Source: Caenispirillum bisanense (lineage in GTDB: Bacteria > Pseudomonadota > Alphaproteobacteria > Rhodospirillales > UBA2165). Taken from it: DNA of 64,000 bases. The stretch's first letter is position 1. Each line of letters begins with the position of its first letter. Below the pieces are notes generated by a model, which saw only the letters and a program-made list of their open reading frames with translations, was not told the DNA's origin and made no database searches. The DNA lies in the NCBI GenBank assembly GCA_945877815.1, contig CAMDWJ010000005.1, positions 15,549-79,548 of the forward strand. The letters run 5' to 3'. The translations under genes and the position numbers were made by a program. Below are positions 6,209-51,693 of the stretch, one piece after another.

Positions 6209-6240
6209 GGCGCGCCATGGTGGCAAATGGACGGAAAATC

Positions 6241-6345
6241 GGGTGGGAGACCGGACAATCGACCCGGCCGAAACTCGTTACGGCTGCTTCCTTCCGGACC
6301 TGACCGGGTTAGCGAGCAAGCCGTCCGCTCGCCGGCCTCCCAACC
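6241..6345 (-). ncRNA. ffs: signal recognition particle RNA (4.5S, small bacterial type)
   Basis: The minus strand contains the invariant domain IV core GGTCAGGTCCGGAAGGAAGCAGCC. The ends GGTTGGGAGGCCGG and CCGGTCTCCCACCC pair as a closing helix. Typical position upstream of dnaX. Ends are approximate. Confidence 0.8.
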
Positions 6346-32626: not shown

Positions 32627-32766
32627 CGCGCCGCCAGCCTTCGCTAGTTCTAGGGCAACCCGGGATCAATGCTTTGATCCAGGTCAATTTCCGCCTCGAT
32701 TGACGAATTTCGTTGATCCTGTCATTTTTCGGCCTAACTCAAAGACAGAATCACAGGAGTCGCCTC

Positions 32767-33783
32767 ATGGCTGAGATCGTTGGCGGGATGGGCTCGTCGC
32801 ATGGACCGCTGCTTATCCTTCCCGCCGAAAGTTGGCCTCTGCGCGCCAATTTCGACCGCAACCTGAAGGAGCATCATTTCCGGGGCGGCGTTTACGATTT
32901 CCCGCAGCTGCTCGCCAAGCGCAACAGCGAACAGGAATATTTCGAAAAGGAAATCCGCCCTGAGGTCCGCGAGGAACGGTTCAACCGCTGCCAGGTTGCG
33001 CTCGATGCGCTCGGCGAGGCGGTGAAAAAGTTCAAGCCGGACGTCCTCGTGCTCATCGGTGACGATCAACACGAATGGTTCTTTGACGACGTGCAGCCGA
33101 GCTATTCGATCTTCTCCGGCGATAAGGTTTTGAATACGGGCTACGAGCCCGCGAAACATGCGCATAAGGATCCGGCCGTGCAGCTCGTCGAGTCGCACCG
33201 CCATACCCCGGTCGATACCTGGTACGAATGCGTGCCCGACCTTGCCAACACCATTGTTGCCGAATGCATGGAGTCGGAATTCGACGTAACCGCGTCGGAG
33301 AAAGTGCCGGAAGGCCCGGAAGGTCCGCGCGGCATCGGCCACGCCGTCAGCTTTATCTATCGCCGAATCCTGAAGGACAAGGCGATCCCGCTGGTACCGG
33401 TGCTCATCAACACCTTCTTCCCGCCGAATCAGCCGACGCCGAAACGCTGCTTCGAACTCGGCCAGGCGATCGGCCGCGGCATCCAGAAATGGGATACCGA
33501 CAAGCGCGTGCTCGTCGTAGCGTCGGGCGGTCTGTCACACTTCGTCATCGACGAGGCCTGGGACCGCAAGATGCTGAAGGCGATGCAGACCCGCGACTAC
33601 AAGACGATCACGAGCGAGCCCAACATCATCTTCAATTCGGGAACGTCCGAGACCAAGAATTGGATCGCGACGCTAGGCGTTCTGTCGACCACGAACTACG
33701 AGATGAACCTGCTCGATTACGTGCCGTGCTATCGCTCCGAGGCCGGCACCGGCAACGCTATGGCCTTCGCCACTTGGCAATAA
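32767..33783 (+). CDS. class III extradiol ring-cleavage dioxygenase (LigB family)
   Basis: MAEIVGGMGSSHGP start and the DQHEWF, GIGHAVSF and ASGGLSH motifs typical of LigB/gallate-protocatechuate 4,5-dioxygenase-like enzymes. Confidence 0.8.
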   Translation: MAEIVGGMGSSHGPLLILPAESWPLRANFDRNLKEHHFRGGVYDFPQLLAKRNSEQEYFEKEIRPEVREERFNRCQVALDALGEAVKKFKPDVLVLIGDDQHEWFFDDVQPSYSIFSGDKVLNTGYEPAKHAHKDPAVQLVESHRHTPVDTWYECVPDLANTIVAECMESEFDVTASEKVPEGPEGPRGIGHAVSFIYRRILKDKAIPLVPVLINTFFPPNQPTPKRCFELGQAIGRGIQKWDTDKRVLVVASGGLSHFVIDEAWDRKMLKAMQTRDYKTITSEPNIIFNSGTSETKNWIATLGVLSTTNYEMNLLDYVPCYRSEAGTGNAMAFATWQ

Positions 33784-34658
33784 TGCCCTCCAAGCAAGAG
33801 CCCGTCGCGATCGACAGCGACGGACTCAAGCTCTCCGCCGTCGTCCACGTCCCGTCCGATCTGAAACCCGGCGAGAAACGCGCGGCGGTCCTCATTTTGC
33901 ACGGCTTCGGCGGTCACAAGGACGGGCCGCAGCAACGCTGGTCATCGAACCAGTTCGTAGCCTGGGGCTATATCGCCGTGCGTCTCGATTATCGCGGCTG
34001 CGGCGAGAGCGAGGGCAAACGCGGCTGGACCCTGCCAATGGAACAGGTCGCCGATACGCGCAACGCCATGACCTATTTGGCTGGCCGGACTGACGTCGAT
34101 GCGTCGCGCATCTGCCTGCTCGGCACCAGCTACGGTGCGTCGGTCGCCATCTGGACGGCTGCGGCGGATGAGCGCGCCTGCGCGGTGATCTCGCAGGGCG
34201 GCTGGGCCAACGGCGAGCGCAAGGCGCGCGAGCAGCATGCGAGCCCGGAAGCCTGGAAAAAATTCTCCGACATGCTGGAGAGAGGACGCGCCCACAAGGC
34301 GAAGACCGGCGAATCCATGATGGTCGATCGCTACGACGTAGTGCCGGTGCCAGAACATCTGCGCGCCAATATCGATTCGCGCTCGATCTTCCAATTTCCC
34401 GTCGATACGCCCATCGAAACCTTCGCCTTCCATCCCGGCGACATGATCGCCAAGGTGGCGCCCCGCCCCATCCTCCTCATGCATGCCGCGAACGACCGGG
34501 TAACCCCGGTGAACGGCGCGATCGAACTGTTCCAGGCGGCGAAACAACCGTGTGAGTTGTATCTGATGTCCGACGTCGATCATTTCATGTTCGGCGAGGA
34601 CAATCCGCGGGTTATCCACTTCGTCAAAGACTGGCTCGACCGTTATTTTCCGGCATAA
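33783..34658 (+). CDS. alpha/beta hydrolase
   Basis: HGFGGHK oxyanion region, nucleophile elbow GTSYG, and C-terminal D/H (NDRVTP, DHFMF). Its ATG overlaps the LigB stop (TAATG). Confidence 0.8.
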   Translation: MPSKQEPVAIDSDGLKLSAVVHVPSDLKPGEKRAAVLILHGFGGHKDGPQQRWSSNQFVAWGYIAVRLDYRGCGESEGKRGWTLPMEQVADTRNAMTYLAGRTDVDASRICLLGTSYGASVAIWTAAADERACAVISQGGWANGERKAREQHASPEAWKKFSDMLERGRAHKAKTGESMMVDRYDVVPVPEHLRANIDSRSIFQFPVDTPIETFAFHPGDMIAKVAPRPILLMHAANDRVTPVNGAIELFQAAKQPCELYLMSDVDHFMFGEDNPRVIHFVKDWLDRYFPA

Positions 34659-34694
34659 TCGAGTTTCGGGGGCCTTTACGAAAGATCGTCGGAC

Positions 34695-35315
34695 GTGAGC
34701 GAGCCAAAACGGCGAGACGAAAGTCTCGCGACGATATCTGCGTCCGCGCCGCTCGTACGGGCGACTCTTTGGCTATCCGCCGTCGCTGCGATCGCCACAA
34801 TTTCCGTGTTCCTATTCGCGGATATGGACCTGGTCAGACGTCATTTAAAGACGCCCTATGCATGGCTCGAACTCGGCGCCATCGCCCTGACCGCGTGTGC
34901 CGCGATCCTGGCCGCTTTCTGCTTAAATACATCGCGAACCTCGCCCCGGCGGGTTTTCCTCCCCGTTCCGCCGCTTACGCTATGGCTGATCGTTTGCGCC
35001 TACGATTGCCTGAGGCACGTCACCCTGGTCGGGGCCGAGGCGTGGGATTTAGGCGATAGCCCGCACTGCGTCCTTTTCATTCTCGCCATCAGCATTCCGC
35101 TCGGCATTAGCGTGATGGCGACGTATCGTCTACGGCCGGGCCGCTCGTCTGCCCTCGCCGGGCTCGGCGTTGCAACATTCGCAATCTGCCTGCTGCAGTT
35201 CTTCCACCCGTTCGATTCGAATCTCACAGACCTGATCGCGCATATAACAGCGGCGGCGATCGTAGTCGGCGCGATGACTTATTCGGCGCAGCTCATGCCA
35301 ACGATTCGAAGCTGA
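34695..35315 (+). CDS. NrsF-family (DUF1109) anti-sigma-F paralogue, orphan copy 1
   Basis: Six-TM pattern with family motifs DSPHCVLFILAISIPLG and LLQFFHPFD. Paralogous to the gene at 39106-39741. GTG start. Confidence 0.75.
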   Translation: MSEPKRRDESLATISASAPLVRATLWLSAVAAIATISVFLFADMDLVRRHLKTPYAWLELGAIALTACAAILAAFCLNTSRTSPRRVFLPVPPLTLWLIVCAYDCLRHVTLVGAEAWDLGDSPHCVLFILAISIPLGISVMATYRLRPGRSSALAGLGVATFAICLLQFFHPFDSNLTDLIAHITAAAIVVGAMTYSAQLMPTIRS

Positions 35316-35380
35316 AATTCACTCGACGAAATTGCACTCGGATTCTGCCGGGCCAGGCCAGACCTCGGGTTATCCACAGG

Positions 35381-36076
35381 GTGAAGAATCGACTCGAACA
35401 GTATTTGTTGTCCGCACAGTCAGCAGATATCGCGCGAAAGACCCGAACCGTGACAGAGACGAAACGCCGTAGCGACCGCCTCGCCACACATACTGCGTCT
35501 GCTCCGCTGACCTGTGCGATGGTATTTCTCGCAACCTTGGCGTTTGTCGGCGGTTTGCTCGGCTATTTATTCGCCGACCATGATGAGTTGGCGCGCCAAA
35601 TCCGCGACCCGCGCGCAGCGTTCGAATGGTTCGGCGCGGGACTAACGACCGTCGGCGCGATCTTGGCGACGTTTCGCATGCATGCGCATGGCCCCACCGC
35701 ACTGTGGCGCGCCGGACCTTTGCTGACCTTCGCGACCTGGCAACTCGCGACGATTTATCTTTGCCATGACATCCCCACGGAGAAGCCCGCCGAACAGATT
35801 CTTTATGGACACAGTCCCGACTGTTTCCTGTTCATCCTGGCGATCAGCATTCCAGTAAGCAGCGCGTTGTTCTGGGTGTTGTGCCAACACCGCATCCCGC
35901 TCGGCAGTTCCGTGGCGGCCATGGCGGGCTTAAGTGCCGCGGCGGCATCGATCTGGCTCATGCAGTTCTTCCACGCGTTCGAGATGAATATCGGTGATTG
36001 GTCGATCCACTTCGCCGTGATCGGCATCGTCGTCGGATGTGCCGCTTATGCACGGCACATACTATCCAGCGATTAG
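35381..36076 (+). CDS. NrsF-family (DUF1109) anti-sigma-F paralogue, orphan copy 2
   Basis: Motifs HSPDCFLFILAISIPVS and LMQFFHAFE with the same TM layout. The GTG start is uncertain. Confidence 0.72.
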   Translation: MKNRLEQYLLSAQSADIARKTRTVTETKRRSDRLATHTASAPLTCAMVFLATLAFVGGLLGYLFADHDELARQIRDPRAAFEWFGAGLTTVGAILATFRMHAHGPTALWRAGPLLTFATWQLATIYLCHDIPTEKPAEQILYGHSPDCFLFILAISIPVSSALFWVLCQHRIPLGSSVAAMAGLSAAAASIWLMQFFHAFEMNIGDWSIHFAVIGIVVGCAAYARHILSSD

Positions 36077-36495
36077 TGTTCGATCTTGCGCACAATGAGG
36101 TGATCGAGCGAAATAGTGCCGGGCCCTCGCGTCAAAATGTAGCCGAGCATCGCGACCCACATAAGATGCGCGTTCCAGGATTCCGGATATACAAAGATCT
36201 GGATCACCACCGTCATTGCCAGCAACGGCAAGGTCGCTAGGCGCGTCGCTATACCAAGCAGCAAGAGTACAGGGCATGACAATTCCACTGCGGTCGCGAA
36301 CATCGCCGCAAGTTCGGGCGGCAGAAAAGGCACGCGATATTCGTCGCGAAACAGGACGATCGTCGTCTGCCAGCTGTCGATTTTGGTGAGGCCAGAATGC
36401 CAAAAGACTCCACCCACGGTCAGGCGGAACACAAACTGAAAAATCGATAGCGGCAGTCGCTCCATTTCCATCAACAATGATTTGAGATTCAACAT
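36073..36495 (-). CDS. DoxX-family membrane protein (last gene of the DUF2282/MNIO operon)
   Basis: RLTVGGVFWHSGLTKI...FATAVELSCPVLLLLGIATRLATLPLLAMT is a typical DoxX sequence. It starts 5 nt after the DUF2063 stop. Confidence 0.8.
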   Translation of the reverse strand: MLNLKSLLMEMERLPLSIFQFVFRLTVGGVFWHSGLTKIDSWQTTIVLFRDEYRVPFLPPELAAMFATAVELSCPVLLLLGIATRLATLPLLAMTVVIQIFVYPESWNAHLMWVAMLGYILTRGPGTISLDHLIVRKIEH

Positions 36496-36499
36496 CGTC

Positions 36500-37282
36500 T
36501 TAGGCACTCCCAACCAAGTTAAATCCCGCGATCGCGCCTTCGATGAACAGAGCCGCGCATTCCGCATTCACATCGAACTCGCCCTCTACGCCGGCGACAG
36601 CCTCAATGGCATCGCCGAGGGCGGTTCCGCCGTCCAGCGCGGCGCGAAAAGCGAAGGTTGCCGGTGCGAGCTCGCGGAATTCGACCACGCCGTCGCGGCG
36701 ACGCACTTCCAGCAACGCGCCACCGGATTCTAGATTGACGGGTGCGCGCGCAGTCACTTCAGATTGGTTCGCGCGCCAAATCTCAATGATCGGCCAAGGC
36801 GAGCACAAATATCCGAACGAGGGCTGGAATCGGAATGTCAGGCGTTCGGCATCGGCAGCGGCGAGCCCGCCAAGACTAGCCGGGTCCAATGGCGTCCCAT
36901 CGGCTGCCGCGCCGGCGCGCTGCAGCACCCATTCCAGCCGCGCGACATCAGCGAGATAGACCAATTCGCGGCAGGGAGGAAAATCGGCGAGAAAATCGGC
37001 AAATCGAGCGCCATAACCCGCAACGCAAGGAGTATCGGGCGGCAGACCGCAAATAAATTCGTGGGCCGCGAAGGCAAAAAAGCGCGCATCGACCAGCCGG
37101 CATACGACCGGAAAGGTCTCGGCAAGCGCCGCGCTCAGGGACATCCGGGCATTATTACGATGGATCTCGATCCGTTCGGCGGCGGCGATCCCCTCGACCT
37201 CGATAAATGCGGCCAGGGCCGTCGTGTCGCCGGCGAGAATGGCCCGGCGGAAGTCCCGTTGAATCTCAAGCAGCGAGGACAT
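36500..37282 (-). CDS. bufC: DUF2063-family protein, putative MNIO partner subunit (BufC-like)
   Basis: MSSLLEIQRDFRRAILAGD...IHRNN...LEWV is the DUF2063 N-domain pattern. It overlaps the DUF692 gene by 17 nt. Confidence 0.8.
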   Translation of the reverse strand: MSSLLEIQRDFRRAILAGDTTALAAFIEVEGIAAAERIEIHRNNARMSLSAALAETFPVVCRLVDARFFAFAAHEFICGLPPDTPCVAGYGARFADFLADFPPCRELVYLADVARLEWVLQRAGAAADGTPLDPASLGGLAAADAERLTFRFQPSFGYLCSPWPIIEIWRANQSEVTARAPVNLESGGALLEVRRRDGVVEFRELAPATFAFRAALDGGTALGDAIEAVAGVEGEFDVNAECAALFIEGAIAGFNLVGSA

Positions 37283-38108
37283 GAATGCTCCGCGCGATAC
37301 TTGCCTCGGCCACCAAATCTGCGAGGGCAGGCAGGTTCTTGTCGCGTTCGATCAGGCTCGGCACCGCGCCGAAACGATTGAGCGCAGCCCCGAACAGCGT
37401 CCAGACCTCGTCGCAAATGGCAGCGCCGTGATCGTCGATCAGCAAAGTCCGTTCGTCGATGTCGCACCGCGCATGACCGGCGAGATGGATTTCGCCGATC
37501 GCATCGGCGGGAAGCGTTTCCAGATAGAGGATCGGATCTTCACCGACATTGTGCGCGTTCACATAGAGATTGTTCACGTCGCAGAGAATTCCGCAGCCGG
37601 TGCGGCGGACGAGTTCGGCCAGAAATTCGGCCTCGGGAATGCGCGAATCACGAAAGCGCAGGTAACGCGAAGGATTCTCGACGAGCAGGGATCGGCCGAG
37701 ACCATCCTGCGCCGCCGCCACATTGCGAGTAACGATAGCGAGCGACTCTTCGGTGTAAGGCAGAGGCAAGAGATCGTTGAGATAGGCGCCGTCCACCACG
37801 CTCCAGGACAGATGCTCGGAGACCAAGAACGGTTGGACACGGTCGATCAGATCGCGAAAGCGCCCGAGATGGTCACGATCGAGCCCCTCCGCGCTGCCGA
37901 GCGACAGGCCGACGCCATGCAAACTCAGCATGAAGTCGCGGCGGATGTACATGAGCCGGGTGAAAGCCGGCCCGAAATCCATATAATTCTCGGCGTGCAC
38001 TTCGAGAAAATCGAGCGCGGGACGCGTTGCCGACAACTCATCGACGTGCGGTGCGCGCAGACCTATACCGATCTGCGCCTCCGCCCGTCGTGTTCGATCG
38101 TCGAACAT
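37266..38108 (-). CDS. bufB: DUF692-family multinuclear non-heme iron oxidative enzyme (MNIO; MbnB/BufB-like)
   Basis: IGIGLRAPH, FLEVHAENY, SLHGVGLSLGS, SEHLSW, LLVENPS, CDVNNLYVNAHN, IHLAGH and DDHG are the TIM-barrel metal-ligand motif series of DUF692. Confidence 0.88.
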   Translation of the reverse strand: MFDDRTRRAEAQIGIGLRAPHVDELSATRPALDFLEVHAENYMDFGPAFTRLMYIRRDFMLSLHGVGLSLGSAEGLDRDHLGRFRDLIDRVQPFLVSEHLSWSVVDGAYLNDLLPLPYTEESLAIVTRNVAAAQDGLGRSLLVENPSRYLRFRDSRIPEAEFLAELVRRTGCGILCDVNNLYVNAHNVGEDPILYLETLPADAIGEIHLAGHARCDIDERTLLIDDHGAAICDEVWTLFGAALNRFGAVPSLIERDKNLPALADLVAEASIARSIHVLAA

Positions 38109-38134
38109 GATCGCGTCCCGCGCCGATTGCCTGA

Positions 38135-38416
38135 TTACATCGGCTTCAAAGTAGCGCCTTGGATTTTCGCGCAGGTACCGACCGGCACGTAGATCCAGGC
38201 CTTGGGATCACTGGCGCGTTTGGCTTCGCCGGCGCACGAATTGCTGTTGGAGGAGGCGCAATCGTTTTTTCCGACCGCATTGACACCGTAGCATTTCTCG
38301 GCCTGGAAGCTCGGCGTGGGCGCCGGGGCAGCATTGGCCGCAAGCATGGGCAGGGCCACGAGGGCCGAGAAAGCCGAGGCCGCAAGCAGCGCGCTTTTGG
38401 TAGAAATATTTTGCAT
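38135..38416 (-). CDS. bufA: DUF2282-type Sec-signal, 4-Cys precursor peptide (BufA-like RiPP precursor)
   Basis: 93 aa. Signal peptide MQNISTKSALLAASAFSALVALPMLAANA|AP. Core with EKCYGV, NDCAS, NSCAGE and GTCAKI. SD GGGAGA lies 8 nt upstream. The track ORF (171 aa) was trimmed to the ATG at 38416. Confidence 0.85.
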   Translation of the reverse strand: MQNISTKSALLAASAFSALVALPMLAANAAPAPTPSFQAEKCYGVNAVGKNDCASSNSNSCAGEAKRASDPKAWIYVPVGTCAKIQGATLKPM

Positions 38417-38485
38417 GGATGAATCTCCCATTATGCTGAAGTGGATTACGGACCCAACATTGTCTACAAAGGTCCGTGCTCCCTG

Positions 38486-38511
38486 TTCGCACGATGACCG
38501 CACCGGGTTAC
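38486..38511 (-). promoter_or_regulatory. ECF sigma-F-type promoter candidate (GTAACC-N16-CGAA) driving the bufA operon
   Basis: The minus strand reads GTAACC CGGTGCGGTCATCGTG CGAA. It sits about 70 nt upstream of the bufA ATG. It is the only perfect occurrence I could find in the window. Confidence 0.6.
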
Positions 38512-38544
38512 AGGGGGCGGCGATAAAAACGAAAGCCCCCAGAC

Positions 38545-39102
38545 TTGGCGCGAACGAGAGAAAAAAACGCCGACTGGTCCCGCTGGATGGCGGCGGGACA
38601 GAACGGCGATTCGGCCTCCTATGAGCGACTCTTGCGCGCCGTGGTGCCATTCGTGCGGGCCGTCGTATCGCGCCATCATCGCGGAGACCGTATCGACGAT
38701 GCGGTACAGGACGTGCTCCTGACCGTCCATCGCGTGCGCCATACCTACGACCCGGCCCGGCCTTTCGACAATTGGCTTGCGACGATCGCGCATCGTCGGT
38801 CGATCGACCTCCTGCGTCGCCGCGCCCGTATCGCCGCCAACGAGACGAACGACGAATTGGCCTATGAAACCTTTGCCGATCCCATGGCGAACTCGGACTT
38901 GGAGAGGAATGCGCGGACCGAGGGATTGAGCGCGGCGATTGCCGCTTTGCCAGAAAGCCAGCGTGAGGCGATAGACTTGCTAAAGGTGCGCGAAATGACT
39001 CTGATCGAGGCGGCGCGAACCAGCGGCAAATCCATCGCGGCGTTGAAAGTGAATGTCCACCGCGCGATCAAAACGCTGCGGGCGCGGATGAAAGGAGATT
39101 AA
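38545..39102 (+). CDS. sigF: ECF RNA polymerase sigma factor (SigF-like)
   Basis: Region 2 (DDAVQDVLLTVHRVRHTYDPARPFDNWLATIAHRRSIDLLRR) and region 4 (LPESQREAIDLLKVREMTLIEAARTSGKSIAALKVNVHRA). The TTG start is uncertain; an in-frame ATG lies about 14 codons downstream. Confidence 0.88.
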   Translation: MARTREKNADWSRWMAAGQNGDSASYERLLRAVVPFVRAVVSRHHRGDRIDDAVQDVLLTVHRVRHTYDPARPFDNWLATIAHRRSIDLLRRRARIAANETNDELAYETFADPMANSDLERNARTEGLSAAIAALPESQREAIDLLKVREMTLIEAARTSGKSIAALKVNVHRAIKTLRARMKGD

Positions 39103-39105
39103 GAC

Positions 39106-39741
39106 GTGTCGGAAACTACGGACCAATTGATCCACCGGCTAGCACAGGATGCCGGTCCCGTCCGCCGCTTGAAAACGCCGCTGATGCGCGCCGCGGCCTG
39201 GTTCGCGGTGGTCGCGACAGGTTCCGCCGCCGCCGTAATCTGGCTCGCCGATTTTCCCGAATTCATGGCGCGCGCACACGATCCGCGCCATCTAATTGAG
39301 CTTGCGGCGACCCTGATGACCGGGGTCCTGGCGATCATTGCTGCCTTCGAGATGAGCCTGCCCGATCGCGCTCGCGCCTGGGCCGCCCTGCCGCTGCCGG
39401 CGCTCGCCCTATGGCTCGCGACAGCGGGTACTGGCTGCGTGCAAAATTGGATCGCGGGCGTGCCGTCGGATCCGAGCGAGAGCGCGGATTGTTTCGCCAT
39501 CATCGTCGCCACGAGCATCCCGCTCGCCGCGGTCCTTCTCTGGATGCTGCGCCGCGCGAAACCGCTGGCGCCCGGGCCGGTCGCGGCGATGGGCGGGTTG
39601 GGGGTGGCGGGCATCGCCGCATTTCTGCTGCAATTCTTCCACCCCTTCGACGTGACCCTGCTCGATCTTGCGATCCACGCCGTCGCGGTCGGATTGGTCG
39701 TCGGCGTATCCGCCGTCTCGGCGCGTGCGCTCCCCGCCTAA
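39106..39741 (+). CDS. nrsF: NrsF-family (DUF1109) anti-sigma-F factor
   Basis: Begins 3 nt after the sigma stop. Six TM helices. Motifs SADCFAIIVATSIPLA and LLQFFHPFD. Confidence 0.85.
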   Translation: MSETTDQLIHRLAQDAGPVRRLKTPLMRAAAWFAVVATGSAAAVIWLADFPEFMARAHDPRHLIELAATLMTGVLAIIAAFEMSLPDRARAWAALPLPALALWLATAGTGCVQNWIAGVPSDPSESADCFAIIVATSIPLAAVLLWMLRRAKPLAPGPVAAMGGLGVAGIAAFLLQFFHPFDVTLLDLAIHAVAVGLVVGVSAVSARALPA

Positions 39742-40607
39742 CTCTTCCACTCCCAACTCGTCGGTGCGTCAGGTGCATCGACGATGCGGTTGCGCATCGC
39801 TCCGATATCGCCGAGTTCGGATTCGAGCACGTCGCCGTCTTTCAGAAACCAATCGCCGCCCTTGTGTCCCATCGCAACGCCCGACGGCGTGCCAGTGAGA
39901 ATGACGTCACCCGCTTCCAGCGTCATCTGCGAGAGATAGGCAATCAGTTTTGGAATCGGCCAGATCATGTTCGACGTGTTGGACTCCTGGCGCACCTCGC
40001 CGTTGACGCGCGTGCGCAACGCGAGGTTCATCGGATCGGCGATTTCGTCGGCGGTCACGAACCACGGTCCCATCGGGCAAAAGGTATCGAACATCTTGCC
40101 CAGCAACTGATTGCCCTCGGCACGTTCTGTCGCGACAACGTCGCGCGCCGTGATGTCCGATGCGATCGAATAGCCCGCGATCACGGAAGTGGCGTCCTCC
40201 TCGCGCACATGGCGGCACCGCTTGCCAATCACCACGGCGAGTTCGGTTTCGTAATCGAGTTTGCGCGTCGCGCGCGGCTTGACGATATCGTCATAGGCGC
40301 CGGTCAGGGTCGAGGTTGCCTTGATCCAGGCCGACGGAACGACGTTCGGGAAGCGCCCGTCGCCGGCCGACATTTCGCTATTGTGCGAACGGTAGTTTCG
40401 CCCGACCGCGATAATCTTCGACGGCCGCGCTACGGGCGCCAGCAATCGGCATTCGGACAAGGGACGCGCGAAAGCGCTTTGCGTAAGCTTGCCGCCCCGC
40501 AGCCATTCAACGAGATCGTCCCCGCCCGGCAGTTCGGCGACGCGCTCGTCGGAGACGACGAGGCCCAAGCGAGCCTCACCGCCCACGGCATAACGGACAA
40601 CTTTCAA
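39738..40607 (-). CDS. fumarylacetoacetate hydrolase (FAH) family protein
   Basis: KIIAVGRNYRSH, DYETELAVVIGK, GKMFDTFCPMGP and GDVILTGTPSGV motifs. The TTG start overlaps the upstream stop (TTGA). Confidence 0.85.
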   Translation of the reverse strand: MKVVRYAVGGEARLGLVVSDERVAELPGGDDLVEWLRGGKLTQSAFARPLSECRLLAPVARPSKIIAVGRNYRSHNSEMSAGDGRFPNVVPSAWIKATSTLTGAYDDIVKPRATRKLDYETELAVVIGKRCRHVREEDATSVIAGYSIASDITARDVVATERAEGNQLLGKMFDTFCPMGPWFVTADEIADPMNLALRTRVNGEVRQESNTSNMIWPIPKLIAYLSQMTLEAGDVILTGTPSGVAMGHKGGDWFLKDGDVLESELGDIGAMRNRIVDAPDAPTSWEWKS

Positions 40608-41863
40608 TAGACGTGCTCGACAAGTTCCTCGGCCTCGATCCGACCCGAGGCGACCAATTCGGCGCGCGAGCGGGCCTTCCACTCGGCGCGTGGCATAAAG
40701 CCCGGCGTCGAATGGACGCGATCGGCGACATGTTTCAGCAAGGTCGCATCGTCCATGCCGAAATCGAGGGGCCAAGCGATCGGAGCCGGAATGTAATAGT
40801 CGGACTCGTATGAAATCTCGAGCGAATTGCCTTCCGGATCGTCGCAATACAGCGAATAGGAATTGCCGTGGTTAATCGGGCGGAAGTTCGCGCAGCCCGG
40901 AATCGTGCGAAGTGAATCGTTTATGCCGCGCAGCGTCGTGATATCGGGCACGCGGAAGGTGACCTGGTTGACGCTCGATTTTATTTTGGGATCGCGGCCC
41001 GAAACCAAAATCAATTGCGCCACCTGATTGGGATCGCGGGTGAGATACACAATATCCGCAGCGGCTTGTCCGCCGAACGCCGGCATCCGCCCCTTGCCGG
41101 TCACCAGATAGCCGAGCGTCTGCGCGTAGAAAGCCTGGAGGCGATCCATATCGGCGACATAGATGCCAACCTGATGCATCGCGATTTTCGGGAACGGATC
41201 GGCGGGTGCGTGTGTTCCGACCGGGCGGCGGAAAACGCTTTCGCTTGAAGTGATCTTGGCATCGATGCTGGGCGTGGCTTGCGACGCGAGCCGGCCGAGA
41301 CTGGCCAGAACCTTATGCGTCTCCTCGGCCCAGGCGGCGCGCAACATGAACCCCAGTGTCGTGCGGCACTGTCCCTCGGTCTGCGTCATGATCTCCACGT
41401 CCGAGCGCGACAAATCGAGCGGCCAATAGGCCGGCTGCGGCACATACCAGCCGGTGTTGACCGAGGCCGAGATACGGTGGCCCTGCGGATCGACGAAATA
41501 GAGTGTCCAAGCGATGCCGTGATCGGCGGCTTCGATTCCAGTCACCCCCGGCTCGCGCTCGAGGCGCGCCTTCATGCGACGCAGTTCAGCCAAATCGGGC
41601 GCGAGAAACCCGATCTGATTGACGGTGGATGGCAACTCCTTCGGCCGACCGCCGGCGATGACCAGCTGATGATGTTCCCACGGGCGCCGCGTCATGAAGG
41701 ACATATCGAATTCGACGGGGCCGGCATGGACATGGCCGCAATCGCTGACCGCGAAGCCCATCACGCGCGTATAGAAATCCTCGAGCGCCGCGACGTCTTG
41801 GCAAAACACGCCGAAATGGCTGAACACCAGCGCCGGCACATTCTGCTCGCTAACACTAATCAT
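40604..41863 (-). CDS. tandem-duplicated VOC/extradiol dioxygenase-like protein
   Basis: Two homologous halves of about 200 aa. Compare HHQLVIAGGRPKELPSTVNQIGF...GWYVPQPAYWPLDL with VAQLILVSGRDPKIKSSVNQVTF...DYYIPAPIAWPLDF. Confidence 0.75.
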   Translation of the reverse strand: MISVSEQNVPALVFSHFGVFCQDVAALEDFYTRVMGFAVSDCGHVHAGPVEFDMSFMTRRPWEHHQLVIAGGRPKELPSTVNQIGFLAPDLAELRRMKARLEREPGVTGIEAADHGIAWTLYFVDPQGHRISASVNTGWYVPQPAYWPLDLSRSDVEIMTQTEGQCRTTLGFMLRAAWAEETHKVLASLGRLASQATPSIDAKITSSESVFRRPVGTHAPADPFPKIAMHQVGIYVADMDRLQAFYAQTLGYLVTGKGRMPAFGGQAAADIVYLTRDPNQVAQLILVSGRDPKIKSSVNQVTFRVPDITTLRGINDSLRTIPGCANFRPINHGNSYSLYCDDPEGNSLEISYESDYYIPAPIAWPLDFGMDDATLLKHVADRVHSTPGFMPRAEWKARSRAELVASGRIEAEELVEHVY

Positions 41864-41884
41864 CTACACCTCCCAAAACTTAGT

Positions 41885-43303
41885 TTATTTCCCGTTATCT
41901 TTGGCCGCCGCTTCGCCCGCGCGCAAGCCCAACACGAACGCCTTCACGATCCCGCCGACATAGCCGACATTCGGGCCGCCTTCGAGACCGCCGGTGGACG
42001 AACCCGCCGCGTACAGGCCGGAAATGATCGTGCCCTTGTCGGTGAGCACATGCGCGTGGGCATCGATATCGATACCGCCCATGGTGTTGGTGACCCCGGC
42101 ACAGACCTTGATCGCGCAATAGGGCGCTTCGATGGCATGGGCCTTGGCCTTTTTCTCGGTGCGGATCGGACTTAAGCGATCCAGCGTGGCGCCCTTGAGC
42201 GCCGCGTTGTAGCCCGCAAGCGTAGCGGCGAGTGCATCGGCAGGCACATCGATGGCGCGTGCGATTCCGGGGATATCGGCCGCCTCGATCAATGTGCCGC
42301 CGTTGTCGGTAAGTTCCGAATTGGGCGGCGATACACCGCCGGTCGCGATATCGTCCCAGATCTTGCGGCTCAAAACGACCGTCGCCGACAACGGATCGGC
42401 GAGCTTGGCAATGGCATTGGCGACGAACACCGCGCCGCGTCCCTCGTCGACGAAACGATTTCCCGTCCCGTCCACCAGGATCGACGCGGTCGCGGCGATA
42501 TCGATATTAGGATAGGGCCACAGCCGATCATCGGTCATCGCCTCTCGCGCCAGAATGTGGCCGTAGAAGGCGCCGATCTCGGTGATCTTGGCACCGGCGT
42601 CGCGCGCCATGCGGATGCCATCGCCGGTGGCCGACGGGGTCGCGCGCAATTTCACGCGGGTCGGCTCCGGCGTCACCGTATCCTTGAGCATGGCGGGGTT
42701 CGCCTGGAAACCGCCGTCGGCAATGACGATGGCCTTCGCGCCATAGCGCAGCATATCGCCCTCGTGGCGAGCATCGACACCGACGCACACGCCTTCAGCC
42801 ATGACGAGGTTCGCCACCTCGACGCCGCGGATTACCCGCCCGCCGAGATTGACGAGTTTCTGCTCGAGCGCCATCAGCGTTTGATCCGGACCCCTGCCTT
42901 GCCAATCGAGCCCGGCGCGCATGGCGCGCGGCGGCGCCAGAACGAGATGCGCGCGCCCCGCCACATAGCTCATCGCTTTTTCATGTTCGAGGCGCACGCC
43001 GTGGGCCGTCAGCCAATCGACGATGCGGGCGGCGTCCTCGGCGATCGCGCGCACGAGTTCGGGTTTCGCATAGTTCATCGTTTCCGTGTTGATCGCGGCG
43101 ATCAGCCCTTCTGTGCCGAGACGCACATCGTTCGAGGCGACGTGGAAAACCCCGGTCGCGATGCGCGAATTGTTGAATTGCTTTGGCCCGCTCTGGCGCT
43201 CGATCACGAGGACCGACAGGCCAAGTTCACGGCCACGCAACGCGGCGGTTAGGCCAGCGAAACCGGCGCCGATGCAAATCAGATCTACGTCTTCGCCGAT
43301 CAT
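41885..43303 (-). CDS. FAD-dependent oxidoreductase (FAD_binding_2; fumarate reductase/ketosteroid dehydrogenase-like)
   Basis: DLICIGAGFAGLTAAL dinucleotide fold plus C-terminal GLYAAGSSTGG. Start trimmed to MIGEDVD. Confidence 0.82.
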   Translation of the reverse strand: MIGEDVDLICIGAGFAGLTAALRGRELGLSVLVIERQSGPKQFNNSRIATGVFHVASNDVRLGTEGLIAAINTETMNYAKPELVRAIAEDAARIVDWLTAHGVRLEHEKAMSYVAGRAHLVLAPPRAMRAGLDWQGRGPDQTLMALEQKLVNLGGRVIRGVEVANLVMAEGVCVGVDARHEGDMLRYGAKAIVIADGGFQANPAMLKDTVTPEPTRVKLRATPSATGDGIRMARDAGAKITEIGAFYGHILAREAMTDDRLWPYPNIDIAATASILVDGTGNRFVDEGRGAVFVANAIAKLADPLSATVVLSRKIWDDIATGGVSPPNSELTDNGGTLIEAADIPGIARAIDVPADALAATLAGYNAALKGATLDRLSPIRTEKKAKAHAIEAPYCAIKVCAGVTNTMGGIDIDAHAHVLTDKGTIISGLYAAGSSTGGLEGGPNVGYVGGIVKAFVLGLRAGEAAAKDNGK

Positions 43304-43504
43304 GTCGATGCCTCTCCCGTATGGTTTCTCATAATTAATGTGAATCCTGCGCAGACCCGAGGGTTGTTGACAACGCACGTTGGCGCGATGCGCTCCGCCG
43401 TGCGCGCAATCGGCCGCCGATCCGAGTCTAGCAACACTCGTAGATTTTCAGACAAAACCTAAAATAGCTCGTCTATCGCGGTCCATTGCGCAGGATCACA
43501 CGAG

Positions 43505-44041
43505 GTGAAACGCGTCGCCATATTCACAAATGCCGGTGGCGGTAAATCGACCCTGGCCAAGCACCTGGTCGATATCGCCGGCCTGCCGTTGTACGTTGTG
43601 GATAAAATGCGATTCCTGCCCGGAGGCGATGCCGTGCCTCATCAGCAATATTTGGCCACGCACGCGGAGCTGATACAGCGCGATGACTGGATCATCGATG
43701 GTTTCGAAAACGTCGCCACGGCGTGGGAACGATTTGACCGGGCCGACACGCTGATCCACGTCGATCTGCCGCGGGCCGTGCATTACTGGTGGGTCACGAA
43801 GCGCTTCGTCAAAGGTCTTTTTAGAAACCCGGATGGCTGGCCTGAAAACAGTCCTCTCTGGAGCAGCACGCTCTCGAGCTATTCGGTCATCTCGCGGTGT
43901 CATCGCAACCTGACGCCGAGGTATAGGCAGTTGCTTTTGGATTCGGCGGCGTCGAAACGTGTCCACCATCTCAGATCGCCTGCCGAGATCGCGAATTTTC
44001 TCGAAACGGTGAGGCGCGAAGCCGCGCGATCTATAAAATAA
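43505..44041 (+). CDS. P-loop NTPase, adenylate-kinase / topology-modulation (FlaR)-like
   Basis: Walker A NAGGGKST near the N-terminus. About 178 aa. GTG start. Confidence 0.6.
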   Translation: MKRVAIFTNAGGGKSTLAKHLVDIAGLPLYVVDKMRFLPGGDAVPHQQYLATHAELIQRDDWIIDGFENVATAWERFDRADTLIHVDLPRAVHYWWVTKRFVKGLFRNPDGWPENSPLWSSTLSSYSVISRCHRNLTPRYRQLLLDSAASKRVHHLRSPAEIANFLETVRREAARSIK

Positions 44042-44513
44042 AGCTGACGCTTCCGAGGCTCGCCAATTCCAGCGCGTCCAGACGCACGATCCGCTCGGCA
44101 ATCTTTAGGTCACTCGCCGCCTTCGCCAGCTTGAAGTGATAGGTGCCGACATATTGGCGGATGTCTTCGTTGCGACGGAAGCGATAGATGACGAAGTTGG
44201 CGGCCAGGGTGACGGTATGATCGTCCTGCTCAAGAATCCGGACATTCGAAATCATCCGCCGCGTGCGCGAATGTGGAAATTCGGCATGCGCATTGCGGCT
44301 TTTCAAACGGACAATGCGGGCCTTGATGCGGGCAATATCGTCGGCGATGGTGAAAAGCGTGTTTCCGATTTCGCCCTGCGGCTGATCGTTGGGCGGAATG
44401 CGGTAGACGGCATCCTCGGTGAGCAGATCCAGCCATTCGTCGAGACGCCACTCGTCGAGCAGAGCCGCTTCGCGATACAGGAAATCCTCAACCTCTCCAC
44501 GCGAGACCGTCAT
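44031..44513 (-). CDS. aromatic ring-hydroxylating dioxygenase beta subunit
   Basis: EVEDFLYREAALLDEWRLDEWLDLLTEDAVY is the typical SnoaL-like beta-subunit N-terminus. Its ATG overlaps the alpha-subunit stop (ATGA). Confidence 0.85.
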   Translation of the reverse strand: MTVSRGEVEDFLYREAALLDEWRLDEWLDLLTEDAVYRIPPNDQPQGEIGNTLFTIADDIARIKARIVRLKSRNAHAEFPHSRTRRMISNVRILEQDDHTVTLAANFVIYRFRRNEDIRQYVGTYHFKLAKAASDLKIAERIVRLDALELASLGSVSFIL

Positions 44514-45805
44514 TGCGCGGCCGCCGCAGCGACGTCGTTGCCCATATGCCTGGCCCACTGGCGCCAGAAGGCGCGCAGATGCAATTCATCCGTATTGAGC
44601 TGCTCGCCGGTCTTGTTGATCCCGCGCGACAGTTCCGACCATTCGATCTCGCGCCAAGTCTTCAAACCCGCCTGTACGCATTCCAAAGCTTCGACGTCGT
44701 CCGGCGTCGCAAACCCGCCCGGCCCATAGAAAGTGAGGAAGCTGTCGAGCCGACGCGCGCGTGCGGTTTCGGATTCTTCGGTCGGGCCGAGCGCCCAGGC
44801 GGTGACGCGCATGCGATCGACGGCGAGCGGATGGAAGGCGCGGATGGTGACGGAGGATCCGTCGTTGATGACGAGATTGGGAAAGATCACGAGATTGCGA
44901 TTGGTATCGGCGACCCGCGCCGCGCGATCGGCACCCAAACGTTCCACCAGCTCGTCGCGGATGACCGCGATCTCGGGTTTGGACTCCTCGCCATAAATGG
45001 GGATCCAGCGGGCGACGGGCCGGCCACGGAAATTGACGTTGTCGATCACGGCATGGCCATTTCCGAGATCTATGCCGACGCCGTGCGAAGGCAGCAGGTG
45101 TCCCGCCTCCGGCGCTTGAAACTCGACGCCAGCATCCTTGATATATTTGAGCCAGGTCGCGTGCGTGCTGAGCAGGTGATAGTCGTCGAAGGAATTTTCG
45201 ACAAGCAGCTTCCAATTGGCGGCGATGTCGTATTCCTGAGTGCCCTGGATCAAATGCATCTTGCCGGACGGCGACTGATCGACGACGAGATCGATATATT
45301 CCTTGGCGCCCGCGAGATAATCGACGAGCGGCATGGCGTTTTTATCAAAATTCACGAACCAGAAATCGCGATAGCTTTCGAGACGGGGCACCGATGTCAG
45401 GCCGAATTTGGATTGATCGAAATTCGGCGGATAGGATTCCTTGCCCGGCACAATCGTCAGGTTCCCGTCCGCGTCGTAAACCCAGCCATGATAGAAACAC
45501 ACATGGCGCTTGGCATTGCCGGCGCTCTCGCGGCACACGAGGGCCGCGCGGTGACGGCACGAATTAAGCAGGGCCTTCACCGCGCCGTCGGCCCCGCGGC
45601 AGAAAATCAGCGGACGCCCGCAGATGGTACGGGTGCGGAAATCGCCGGGCGCGGCCAATTCAGAATCGTGGCCGACATAGATCCAGCAGGTATCGAAAAT
45701 GCGACGGCGCTCCGCCTCGAGCACCGCTTCATCAACGAGGGTGCGGCGGTTGACCCGAAAGGTCATCTTGTCAGGTTCGTCGATCACGTATTGGTTTGAT
45801 GTCAT
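44510..45805 (-). CDS. Rieske (2Fe-2S) aromatic ring-hydroxylating dioxygenase alpha subunit
   Basis: Rieske motif CRHRAALV...CFYHGW, plus a catalytic-domain His/Asp region (DDYHLLSTH). Confidence 0.88.
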   Translation of the reverse strand: MTSNQYVIDEPDKMTFRVNRRTLVDEAVLEAERRRIFDTCWIYVGHDSELAAPGDFRTRTICGRPLIFCRGADGAVKALLNSCRHRAALVCRESAGNAKRHVCFYHGWVYDADGNLTIVPGKESYPPNFDQSKFGLTSVPRLESYRDFWFVNFDKNAMPLVDYLAGAKEYIDLVVDQSPSGKMHLIQGTQEYDIAANWKLLVENSFDDYHLLSTHATWLKYIKDAGVEFQAPEAGHLLPSHGVGIDLGNGHAVIDNVNFRGRPVARWIPIYGEESKPEIAVIRDELVERLGADRAARVADTNRNLVIFPNLVINDGSSVTIRAFHPLAVDRMRVTAWALGPTEESETARARRLDSFLTFYGPGGFATPDDVEALECVQAGLKTWREIEWSELSRGINKTGEQLNTDELHLRAFWRQWARHMGNDVAAAAAQ

Positions 45806-45896
45806 GAGGCATTTTTACATGCGGGTGCAGACTTTCAACCCCATGAATCTCGCCTATGATAGTGCGAATGACTATCGCCGGGGGAGCCGCAATCTC

Positions 45897-46613
45897 ATGA
45901 GCATGTTATCCGATACAGTTGAGAAGATCGTCACCGCCAACCGCATCCTCGCGCGCGAGGAGGTGGTGGACGGATTCGGCCATGTGAGTATGCGTCATCC
46001 GACCGACCCCGAACGTTATTTGCTGTCGCGCTCGCGTAGCCCCGAACTGGTGGAAAGCGGCGATATCCTGGAATACACGCTGGACGGCACCTGCATCGAC
46101 GACAACGGCGGCATGAAACCCTATGCCGAACGCTTCATCCACGGCGCGATTTATAAGGCGCGCCCCGATGTGATGAGCGTGGTGCATCACCACGCCTATC
46201 CGGTTGTCAGCTTCACCGCCTCCAAAATGCCGATCCGCCCGATGATGCATACGACGGCCGTGATCGGCCACGAAATCCCGCTTTGGGATATCCGCGACAA
46301 ATTCGGCCCCAACACCAATATGCTGGTCGTCAATATGGAGCAGGGCGGCGATCTGGCGAAGAAGCTCGGCAGCAATCGCATGGTGATGATGCGCGGCCAT
46401 GGCGCCACCTCGGCCGGCACGACCATCGAGGATTCTGTGATCAGTTCGATCTATCTGCAGATCGCCGCGCGCCAGCAATTGGATGCGCTGACCATCGGCG
46501 GCGAAATCACCTATCTGAGCAAGGGCGAGATCGACGGTCAGATTTCGCCCGAAGTGATCGCCATCGCCTTCCCACGCATTTGGGAATATTTCAGCCGCCG
46601 TGCTGGTCGATGA
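45897..46613 (+). CDS. class II aldolase/adducin family protein
   Basis: GFGHVSMRH, VVHHHA and MRGHGA motifs. The start is uncertain because several in-frame starts lie upstream, back to 45699. Confidence 0.8.
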   Translation: MSMLSDTVEKIVTANRILAREEVVDGFGHVSMRHPTDPERYLLSRSRSPELVESGDILEYTLDGTCIDDNGGMKPYAERFIHGAIYKARPDVMSVVHHHAYPVVSFTASKMPIRPMMHTTAVIGHEIPLWDIRDKFGPNTNMLVVNMEQGGDLAKKLGSNRMVMMRGHGATSAGTTIEDSVISSIYLQIAARQQLDALTIGGEITYLSKGEIDGQISPEVIAIAFPRIWEYFSRRAGR

Positions 46614-46636
46614 GGCCGGACAATAGGAGTGCACGA

Positions 46637-48010
46637 ATGAACATCCTGACCGACGACGCCACCGGCGCGATAGCGCTGCATGCGGTGAGCAAAGACAAAT
46701 TGGCCGATTTCAAAAGCACCTTGCCCGCACCGGCCAAAGCCTGGATCGAGGCGACCGGGTTCGAGGCCGGATCGGGCAAGACCTGCCTGATCCCGGGCGC
46801 CGACGGCAAGCTGGCAAGCGTCGTCCTCGGAACCTCGGCCACCGATGGCATGTGGAGCTTCGGCAACGGCGCGCGTGATCTGCCGAAGGGCACCTATAAA
46901 TTGGCCACACCGCTGGGCGGCGAAGAAGCAAGCCGCTCCGCACTGGCCTGGGGATTGGGCGCCTATTCCTTCGGGCGCTACAGGGAAACCGACGCGCCGA
47001 AGGCCAGCCTCGTATGGCCCGACGCCAGCGACAAGGCCGAGGTGCAGGCGATGCTGGACGGCATCAATCTGGCGCGCGATCTCATCAATACGCCGACCGA
47101 GGATATGGGACCCTCGGCCCTGGCCGAGGCCGCGCGCGAATTGGCGCGGCGTCACAATGCCGGCTTCACCGTCACCGTCGGCGACGATCTGCTGAAAAAC
47201 AATTATCCCGCGATCCACGCGATCGGCCGGGCCAGCGACGAAGCGCCGCGCCTGATCGATATCGTGTGGGGCGAGGCGAATGCGCCCAAGGTGACGCTGT
47301 GCGGCAAAGGCGTGTGCTTCGATACCGGCGGGCTCGACATCAAGCCGGCGTCCGGCATGAAGAACATGAAGAAGGACATGGCCGGCGGTGCCAATGTCCT
47401 GGCGCTGGCGCACGCGATCATGTCGAGCGGGCTCAAGGTGCGGCTGCGCGTGCTGATTCCGGCCGTGGAAAATTCGATCGCCGGCAATGCGGTGCGGCCG
47501 CTCGACGTGATCCGCGCGCGCTCGGGCAAGACCATCGAGATCGGCAATACCGATGCCGAGGGCCGCGTCATCCTCGCCGATGCGCTAGCCGAGGCGTCGA
47601 GCGAAAAGCCCGATCTGCTGATCGATTTCGCGACCCTGACGGGTGCGGCGCGCGTCGCGCTGGGTGTCGATCTTCCGGCGCTGTTCTGCAACGACGACCG
47701 CCTCGCCGCAGATCTGTTGGCCGCCGGCACACGCGCGCAGGATCCGATGTGGCGTCTGCCGCTGTGGCCAGGCTACCGCAAGATGATCGACAGCAAGACC
47801 GCCGACATCACCAACGCGCCGGAGGGCGGCTTCGCCGGCGCCATCACGGCCGCGCTGTTTTTGCAGGAATTCGTCGGCGCGGGGATTCCCTGGGCCCATA
47901 TCGATATGATGGCGTGGAACCAATCCAACCGGCCAGGCCGTCCAGAAGGCGGCGAGGCCATGTCGGTGCGGACCTGCTTCGAGGTGATCAAGAAACGCTA
48001 CGGCGGCTGA
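46637..48010 (+). CDS. M17 leucyl aminopeptidase family protein
   Basis: Catalytic signature NTDAEGRVILADAL, plus GKGVCFDTGGLDIKP and MKKDMAGGA. Start trimmed to MNILTDD. Confidence 0.88.
   Translation: MNILTDDATGAIALHAVSKDKLADFKSTLPAPAKAWIEATGFEAGSGKTCLIPGADGKLASVVLGTSATDGMWSFGNGARDLPKGTYKLATPLGGEEASRSALAWGLGAYSFGRYRETDAPKASLVWPDASDKAEVQAMLDGINLARDLINTPTEDMGPSALAEAARELARRHNAGFTVTVGDDLLKNNYPAIHAIGRASDEAPRLIDIVWGEANAPKVTLCGKGVCFDTGGLDIKPASGMKNMKKDMAGGANVLALAHAIMSSGLKVRLRVLIPAVENSIAGNAVRPLDVIRARSGKTIEIGNTDAEGRVILADALAEASSEKPDLLIDFATLTGAARVALGVDLPALFCNDDRLAADLLAAGTRAQDPMWRLPLWPGYRKMIDSKTADITNAPEGGFAGAITAALFLQEFVGAGIPWAHIDMMAWNQSNRPGRPEGGEAMSVRTCFEVIKKRYGG

Positions 48011-51606: not shown

Positions 51607-51693
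<87 letters not shown>

Follow-up and report, generated by a model that had tools for sequence, protein, structure and literature searches.

A probable Buf1-type bufferin cluster with its cognate SigF/NrsF pair and linked NrsF-like paralogues in an uncultured alphaproteobacterium

Four tightly packed genes on the minus strand of contig CAMDWJ010000005.1 lie divergent from a gene pair for an extracytoplasmic function (ECF) sigma factor and a membrane-bound partner, and the question raised by this locus is what the four genes make and what switches them on. The analysis covers a stretch of 64,000 nucleotides (the window, 64 kb; positions are counted from its first letter). A preliminary description of the locus, made from the letters alone, had proposed a Sec-exported metallophore that is modified by a multinuclear non-heme iron oxidative enzyme (MNIO) and controlled by a SigF/NrsF pair. 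The comparisons presented here support that proposal, which matches the published bufferin system of Caulobacter. With a probability of about 0.88 we read the locus as a Buf1-type bufferin cluster, bufA1B1C1D1 (bufABCD below), with its cognate SigF/NrsF pair, from an uncultured alphaproteobacterium related to Rhodospirillaceae and Stellaceae metagenome-assembled genomes (MAGs), with a mechanism like that in Caulobacter. What is observed here, and what the reading builds on, is gene content, gene order, protein families, catalytic and substrate residues, a promoter motif, and purifying selection.

The open reading frame (ORF) listing of the window confirmed all six ORFs at the coordinates and on the strands first given for them (Table 1). 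On the minus strand bufA and bufB are separated by 26 nt (38109-38134), bufB and bufC overlap by 17 nt (37266-37282), and bufC and bufD are separated by 4 nt (36496-36499), which reproduces exactly the packing described earlier; sigF and nrsF lie divergently on the plus strand with a spacer of 3 nt. Profile hidden Markov model searches placed all six proteins above curated cut-offs and so bore out the families first assigned to them, including the ECF sigma factor and the six-transmembrane NrsF. Overlooked in the preliminary description were an exact SigF promoter motif before bufA and two NrsF-like genes, nrsF2 and nrsF3, which lie beside bufD just beyond the interval it covered. Ratios of nonsynonymous to synonymous substitution rates (dN/dS) for the resulting eight genes, calculated against a related locus (L041) whose NrsF3 is 92% identical, are between 0.07 and 0.28, and the eight are therefore real coding genes. 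The synteny of the locus is kept in relatives down to ~50% identity.

Table 1. Features of the bufferin locus, the linked NrsF-like genes, and housekeeping markers elsewhere in the window
Feature	Coordinates	Strand	Description	Evidence
bufA	38135-38416	minus	93-residue BufA1/DUF2282 bufferin precursor	PF10048 73.2 bits, cut-off 22.4
BufA signal peptide	38330-38416	minus	predicted Sec signal peptide, residues 1-29	K7, hydrophobic core, Ala-Asn-Ala before predicted cleavage site
bufB	37266-38108	minus	280-residue MNIO (DUF692) bufferin maturase	NF050167 and PF05114
bufC	36500-37282	minus	260-residue DUF2063 partner (PME1 type), C-terminal RRE-like domain	PF09836 74.9 bits
bufD	36073-36495	minus	140-residue DoxX-family membrane protein	PF07681 64.7 bits
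sigF	38545-39102	plus	ECF sigma factor, 185 residues from TTG 38545	Sigma70_r2 and r4_2
nrsF	39106-39741	plus	211-residue anti-sigma factor with six transmembrane segments	PF06532 78.4 bits
bufABCD promoter	38486-38511	minus	SigF-type promoter: -35 GTAACC, 16-nt spacer, -10 CGAA	exact motif match
nrsF2	34695-35315	plus	206-residue NrsF-like paralogue	PF06532 30.0 bits, cut-off 26.8
nrsF3	35450-36076	plus	208-residue NrsF-like paralogue, GTG start	PF06532 37.6 bits, cut-off 26.8
N17 motif	34500-34526	plus	weak candidate SigF-type motif, GTAACC-N17-CGAA	no other exact N17 match in the window, 0.06 expected
dnaX	4400-6226	minus	housekeeping marker	
SRP RNA (signal recognition particle RNA)	6243-6340	minus	housekeeping marker	
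tRNA-Leu(CAG)	51607-51693	plus	housekeeping marker	
rpoN	60278-61807	plus	housekeeping marker	

The same four-gene order with an adjoining SigF/NrsF pair is found in buf1ABCD of Caulobacter vibrioides (CCNA_03363-03366; Leprevost et al., PNAS 2024, PMC11626156), which shares with the present locus a DUF2282-type precursor with a Sec signal peptide and a GTAACC-N16-CGAA promoter, and which differs from it in that two extra NrsF-like genes stand beside bufD here. The likeness rests on gene content and order, the promoter motif, and the register of the Cys residues. Genetics, mass spectrometry, nuclear magnetic resonance (NMR), and in-vitro reconstitution established that 5-thiooxazole formation at the two central Cys residues of Buf1 requires both Caulobacter BufB and BufC, which together suffice for it (PMC11626156). 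In the same work Cys II and Cys III were identified as the modified residues and Cys I and Cys IV as joined in a disulfide; the signal peptide directs Sec export but modification proceeds without it, DoxX is not needed either, and the bufferin is a ligand of Cu(I)/Cu(II) that gives protection against copper (PMC11626156).

BufB scores 356.8 bits against the NCBIfam equivalog NF050167 'MNIO family bufferin maturase' (MNIO_BufB; cut-off 310) and 328 bits against PF05114 MbnB_TglH_ChrH (formerly DUF692), and falls far under the NCBIfam equivalog cut-offs for HvfB, ApyH, MbnB, and ChrH (231 versus 360 for HvfB, NF003818, and 55 versus 325 for MbnB, TIGR04159). Among solved structures 3BWW is the nearest (E 1e-34), with TglH and MbnB next. 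In HMMER alignments H64, H99, E144, D177, N180, H208, D225, H227, and E254 coincide with the motifs in which 3BWW and MbnB hold their Fe ligands, the matched ligands of MbnB being His54, His90, Glu133, Asp163, His192, Glu239, and the pair Asp208/His210. Judged from these alignments, BufB keeps every Fe-ligand position. A separate observation concerns the wider family, in which 10 of the 44 aligned BufB homologues have Gln, Ala, and Arg at the positions of H64, E144, and H208. These homologues are probably those of the Ferrovibrio-type loci (L025-L034 and L039), where no DUF2282 gene was detected beside the BufB gene, and they may form a divergent or non-canonical MNIO subgroup or reflect an alignment artifact.

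The precursor shares the Cys register of Caulobacter Buf1. The four Cys residues of BufA (I-IV; residues 42, 53, 61, and 82) have the spacing 11/8/21, equal to that of Cys12/23/31/52 in Buf1, and shifting the numbering by 30 residues also brings the Asp before Cys II, the Ser-Cys-Ala at Cys III, and Trp44 into line with Buf1. The BufA proteins of 34 related loci retain the four Cys residues in the pattern 11 / 7-9 / 21. The signal peptide was judged by hand and by a crude hydropathy scan, with the cleavage site inferred; the scan located a single hydrophobic segment, N-terminal, at residues 8-30. The signal peptide and Cys residues noticed earlier in this small ORF are in this way confirmed as an N-terminal hydrophobic segment and four Cys in Buf1 register. 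A Shine-Dalgarno sequence, GGGAGA, lies 7 nt before the bufA ATG. No EGKCG repeats occur in the BufA precursor, and a sequence search returned no solved structure for it. Elsewhere, three loci from Rhodospirillaceae MAGs (L018, L021, and L023) have tandem bufA genes before one bufB, and where the sequence is listed (L018 and L023) the second bufA copy has extra Cys residues, six in total; clusters with tandem precursors are already published, and these three agree with them.

Whether the modified residues would be thiooxazoles is a question that the wider MNIO family raises. Methanobactin is made in a similar way, MbnABC likewise using an MNIO and a partner to turn Cys residues of a ribosomal peptide into a copper ligand. 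It differs in that the product is an oxazolone-thioamide, the peptide has a leader and a dedicated export route rather than Sec, the partner is MbnC rather than a DUF2063 protein, and the mature molecule is a secreted copper scavenger and not a periplasmic buffer. BufB is homologous to MbnB, the oxazolone-thioamide is isomeric with the thiooxazole and hard to distinguish from it, and both oxazolin and MovA were initially assigned as oxazolone/thioamide, so that a methanobactin-like oxazolone-thioamide pair at Cys53 and Cys61 deserves mention as an alternative. We consider it very unlikely, however, since NMR of Buf1 showed thiooxazole, later alkylation-assisted heteronuclear multiple-bond correlation work reassigned oxazolin to thiooxazole and argues that all PME1-dependent MNIOs yield this product, and the MbnB equivalog score of BufB is the low one given above. 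Nearer in architecture are the EGKCG-repeat captophorins, among them oxazolin/Hvf of Haemophilus, gonophorin, and fontiphorin, which pair an MNIO with a DUF2063/PME1 partner, often with DoxX, and process signal-peptide precursors to copper-binding thiooxazole products. Their precursor is a repeat peptide and not a DUF2282 domain, and the present locus stands apart from Hvf in that BufC and BufD fall below the HvfC and HvfX cut-offs, as BufB does below that of HvfB.

The partner protein was examined as an AlphaFold2 model built on 46 homologues, with a mean predicted local distance difference test score (pLDDT) of 90.3; a sequence search of the PDB found no match for BufC. The top Foldseek matches of the model in the PDB are structures of TglI (8HCI_A/8HI7_A, E ~1e-5), the DUF2063 protein NGO1945 (3DEE) is matched at 5e-5, and the C-terminal ~70 residues weakly match the lasso-peptide RRE TbiB1 (E>1). 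On the strength of the modeled fold, BufC is the two-domain MNIO partner (PME1) of the literature. The best NCBIfam match of BufD is the HvfX-family Cu-binding RiPP (peptide made by the ribosome and then post-translationally modified) maturation protein, under its cut-off. A longer DoxX ORF of 164 residues exists, and public assemblies call the 140-residue start.

The names under which such proteins are filed tell a different story, and they bear on whether any peptide is modified here at all. The preliminary description expected all four genes to be labeled hypothetical or DUF. That now holds only in part, as Pfam now names PF10048 'BufA1' and PF09836 'HvfC_N' and NCBIfam has a BufB equivalog, although homologues of BufC are still called 'DNA-binding domain-containing protein' at NCBI. 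Pfam text likewise describes PF10048 as a 'predicted integral membrane protein' and PF09836 as a 'putative DNA-binding domain'. Taken at face value, these older annotations would make the DUF2282 protein an integral membrane protein and the DUF2063 protein a DNA-binding regulator, with no peptide modification; alternatively, the locus could be an inactive relic. Both ideas are hardly credible. All of the ORFs are intact with the low dN/dS values noted above, the Fe ligands and the four Cys residues are intact, BufA has no hydrophobic segment past the signal peptide, the fold of BufC resembles MNIO partner proteins, and the old names are contradicted by the genetics and biochemistry of the Caulobacter system.

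Control of the cluster by SigF is suggested by the promoter. The sequence GTAACC-N16-CGAA, defined experimentally as the SigF-binding sequence in Caulobacter (Kohler et al. 2012, PMC3511200), matches exactly once across both strands of the 64 kb, where 0.04 matches would be expected, and this single copy stands 70 nt ahead of the start codon of bufA in the correct orientation. Transcription is predicted from this motif to start near 38478, giving a 5′ untranslated region (UTR) of ~62 nt. The same motif, with a spacer of N16 or N15, is found before bufA in 13 other loci, among them those of the closest relatives and, at the far end, of Burkholderia and Trinickia. When the divergent intergenic regions are aligned, its -35 and -10 elements stand out as blocks without variation. 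General sigma-70 promoter and terminator scans of 34400-40000 gave matches at or below shuffle expectation, and no Rfam match was found in the locus. A structured 5′ UTR or riboswitch before bufA was considered and rejected on a fold z-score of -0.42 and the empty Rfam search. The bufA 5′ UTR also holds a 9-nt block, TTATGCTGA (38431-38439, plus strand), which is placed between the promoter and the Shine-Dalgarno sequence of bufA and is invariant in five loci whose proteins have diverged to ~50% identity; it may belong to the sigF promoter or, alternatively, to the translation initiation region of bufA.

The regulators themselves fit their families. The sigma factor scores 79.9 bits against TIGR02937 sigma70-ECF (cut-off 42.9). 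Its start is ambiguous between TTG 38545 (185 residues) and ATG 38587 (171 residues), and public calls use both; the motif R-E-x-x-W-S-x-W-M, ahead of ATG 38587, is conserved at the protein level in relatives, and the TTG start is favored because conservation extends upstream of the ATG. The TTG start lies only ~35 nt from the bufA -35 element. In NrsF the crude hydropathy scan found six hydrophobic segments. Its N-terminal motif, T-D-Q-L-I-H-R-L-x-x-D-x-G-P-V-R-R-L, and Cys111 and Cys129 are invariant in all of the sigF-linked NrsF proteins aligned. These two Cys residues are 18 residues apart, whereas the periplasmic C131 and C181 of Caulobacter NrsF are 50 apart.

By analogy with Caulobacter, the inducing signal, chemistry, export, and copper binding of the locus would be linked in the following way. 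At rest the six-transmembrane anti-sigma factor NrsF would keep SigF at the membrane. A periplasmic stress signal, which in Caulobacter can be copper, chromate, or cadmium, would free SigF to start transcription of bufABCD at the GTAACC-N16-CGAA promoter. The iron enzyme BufB, acting in the cytoplasm together with BufC and its RRE, would take four electrons from each of Cys53 and Cys61 of BufA and so form 5-thiooxazoles. The precursor would then be exported by Sec and cleaved by signal peptidase after Ala-Asn-Ala, Cys42 and Cys82 would form a disulfide, and the folded protein of ~64 residues would serve in the periplasm as a chelator of Cu(I)/Cu(II) that buffers excess metal. DoxX is conserved yet, as in Caulobacter, probably unneeded for modification.

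The inducer is the weakest point of this scheme because SigF/NrsF homologues answer different signals, namely chromate and cadmium, copper, reactive chlorine, and reactive oxygen species (ROS). The same machinery might accordingly do a job other than copper buffering, with SigF/NrsF sensing another insult (reactive chlorine or oxygen, chromate, cadmium, or gold) and the thiol-bearing peptide acting on a different metal or serving as a redox scavenger. In Azospira suillum a divergent SigF/NrsF pair, from a similar promoter, controls the adjacent yedY1Z1-mrpX operon for a Sec-exported protective periplasmic peptide, although the effector there is an unmodified methionine-rich peptide with a methionine sulfoxide reductase and the signal is reactive chlorine (chlorite/hypochlorite). 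A homologous pair in Bradyrhizobium responds to ROS, and Caulobacter SigF/NrsF itself responds to chromate and cadmium. The authors of the bufferin work expect roles for other metals and suggest that DoxX hints at other stresses, and the annotated parts of the 64-kb window contain no copper-resistance genes. The Cupriavidus metallidurans gig (gold-induced genes) operon and similar metal-induced DUF2282-DUF692-DUF2063-DoxX operons are of the same operon type and are linked to transition-metal stress. All characterized members of the MNIO-PME1 class nevertheless bind copper, Caulobacter buf reporters respond to Cu and not to Fe, Zn, or Mn, and loss of the Caulobacter clusters gives a copper phenotype, and we therefore judge a function other than copper buffering to be unlikely, though less so than either of the alternatives considered above.

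Other observations, beyond the chlorine and ROS responses of the homologous pairs, also weigh against the bufferin reading. The host is known only from metagenome contigs and the reading is made by homology, and BufB is at most 68% identical to its counterpart in the nearest species-representative genome. Residue 54, which follows Cys II, is Ala here and Lys in Caulobacter Buf1; conservation of the residues flanking the Cys is reportedly poor among DUF2282 precursors (PMC13097082). Finally, no convincing SigF-type promoter was found upstream of sigF; autoregulation of sigF-nrsF is only modest in Caulobacter. The best plus-strand candidate for such a promoter, with two mismatches and an N17 spacer, was rejected, and its CGAA sits within a purine-rich GAAAG element resembling a ribosome-binding site that is found before several start codons.

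If the locus is a Buf1-type bufferin cluster, as we favor, it belongs to a well-populated family. The preliminary description saw an unusual RiPP logic in the use of a signal peptide in place of a classical leader. The system is, however, neither surprising nor overlooked in the literature, in which Buf1 clusters are the largest MNIO RiPP group and include sigma-factor and NrsF genes among their members (PMC12452194), and in which a 2026 paper joins bufferins with oxazolin, fontiphorin, and others under the name 'captophorins' (PMC13097082). The system is not new because it replicates the Caulobacter buf1ABCD/sigF-nrsF arrangement and belongs to a family of thousands for which curated models exist. 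The locus adds one Buf1-type cluster, its host being an uncultured alphaproteobacterium of soil or water, and has little discovery value as such; it shows that this cluster can be called with confidence from sequence alone, and that the SigF promoter motif defined in Caulobacter carries over to distant loci in Alpha- and Betaproteobacteria.

Within the locus, mild novelty is confined to the NrsF-like paralogues linked to bufD. NrsF2 and NrsF3 are 35% and 31% identical to NrsF, respectively, and retain its hydrophobic body (six hydrophobic segments in the hydropathy scan of NrsF2), a Q-F-F-H-x-F motif, and the second conserved Cys. The N-terminal motif in its general form, T-D-x-L-I-x-x-L-x-x-D-x-x-P-V-R-x-L, is present in every sigF-linked NrsF aligned and missing from all members of the paralogue group, which have a 9-residue deletion at this place. 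No sigma gene precedes nrsF2 or nrsF3. With the motif absent and no sigma gene ahead, the two proteins cannot be filed as anti-sigma factors. Their dN/dS values against L041 (0.24 for nrsF2 and 0.28 for nrsF3) are similar to those of BufB and BufC, and by this measure both genes are under purifying selection. The longest nrsF3 ORF starts at 35381; homologues are mostly 208 residues long, and the GTG at 35450 is favored as the start because of these lengths. The gene converges on bufD such that the stop codons overlap (TTAG, 36073-36076).

The paralogue group is very small. At 90% identity it forms 12 of 5.8 billion clusters, a single one of 1.84 billion representatives scores E<1e-30, and the short N-terminus occurs in few of the retrieved sequences. 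Its linkage to bufD is nonetheless regular. In contigs with enough flank to judge, an NrsF3-type gene converges directly on bufD in L041, L042, L043/L044, L045, L046/L047, L048, and L049, down to 50% identity. Two paralogues are present in three lineages (nrsF2 being found in L041, L044, and L046) and one in L045; the contigs of L048 and L049 are too short or masked upstream for a paralogue count. The exception is L038, whose NrsF3-like gene carries a frameshift in that MAG and follows LigB at a distance of 4 kb.

Whether SigF also acts on these genes was considered from the motifs near them. The N17 match listed in Table 1 lies 169 nt upstream of nrsF2 within the 3′ end of a hydrolase coding sequence, and it decays in relatives (one mismatch in L041 and two in L045; in L046, L048, and L049 the DNA upstream of the paralogues is absent or masked). 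Because it lies inside the hydrolase gene and is not conserved in L041 and L045, the match may be due to chance. An exact N16 motif is present in intergenic DNA before the NrsF3-like gene of L038 (L038 12639-12664, minus strand). On these motifs the case for SigF dependence of nrsF2 and nrsF3 is weak. We offer as a tentative possibility, with the odds against it, that NrsF2 and NrsF3 are accessory components of the SigF switch in a small alphaproteobacterial clade. As sigma-blind sensors or as decoys they could partner NrsF and adjust or broaden the range of signals to which it responds. They could also take part in feedback, either by being SigF-dependent themselves or by being silenced through antisense read-through from the induced bufABCD transcript, an option that arises because no terminator fits between the convergent nrsF3 and bufD. 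A lineage-specific NrsF-like expansion linked to bufD would offer a possible way into the working of the NrsF sensor, which is poorly understood.

The window forms part of the ENA metagenome contig ERZ27280309 k141_956450. The nearest species-representative genome is a Rhodospirillaceae MAG (BufB identity 68%), in which synteny matches on the FAA-hydrolase/nrsF/sigF side; Stellaceae MAGs come next by BufB (62-65% identity), and BufB of Burkholderiales is ~58-60% identical. The Burkholderiales loci have the same promoter motif before bufA and, unlike the present locus, a BufA with a longer N-terminal core and a Cys spacing of 11/7/21. Exact copies of the locus proteins are present in ENA, NCBI, and Logan contigs, where their names are uninformative. 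Since dnaX, the SRP RNA gene, rpoN, and the tRNA-Leu gene lie nearby, the surrounding DNA is taken to be chromosomal. A second (buf2) cluster is not visible within the 64-kb window.

The locus is embedded among genes for aromatic-ring cleavage, at 32713-34658 on the plus strand and at 39738-47000. These encode a LigB-type dioxygenase, an alpha/beta hydrolase, an FAA hydrolase, and a glyoxalase-fold dioxygenase, and further a flavin adenine dinucleotide (FAD) oxidoreductase and the alpha and beta subunits of a Rieske dioxygenase. The LigB-(hydrolase)-NrsF3 linkage holds even in L038, where these genes stand apart from bufD.

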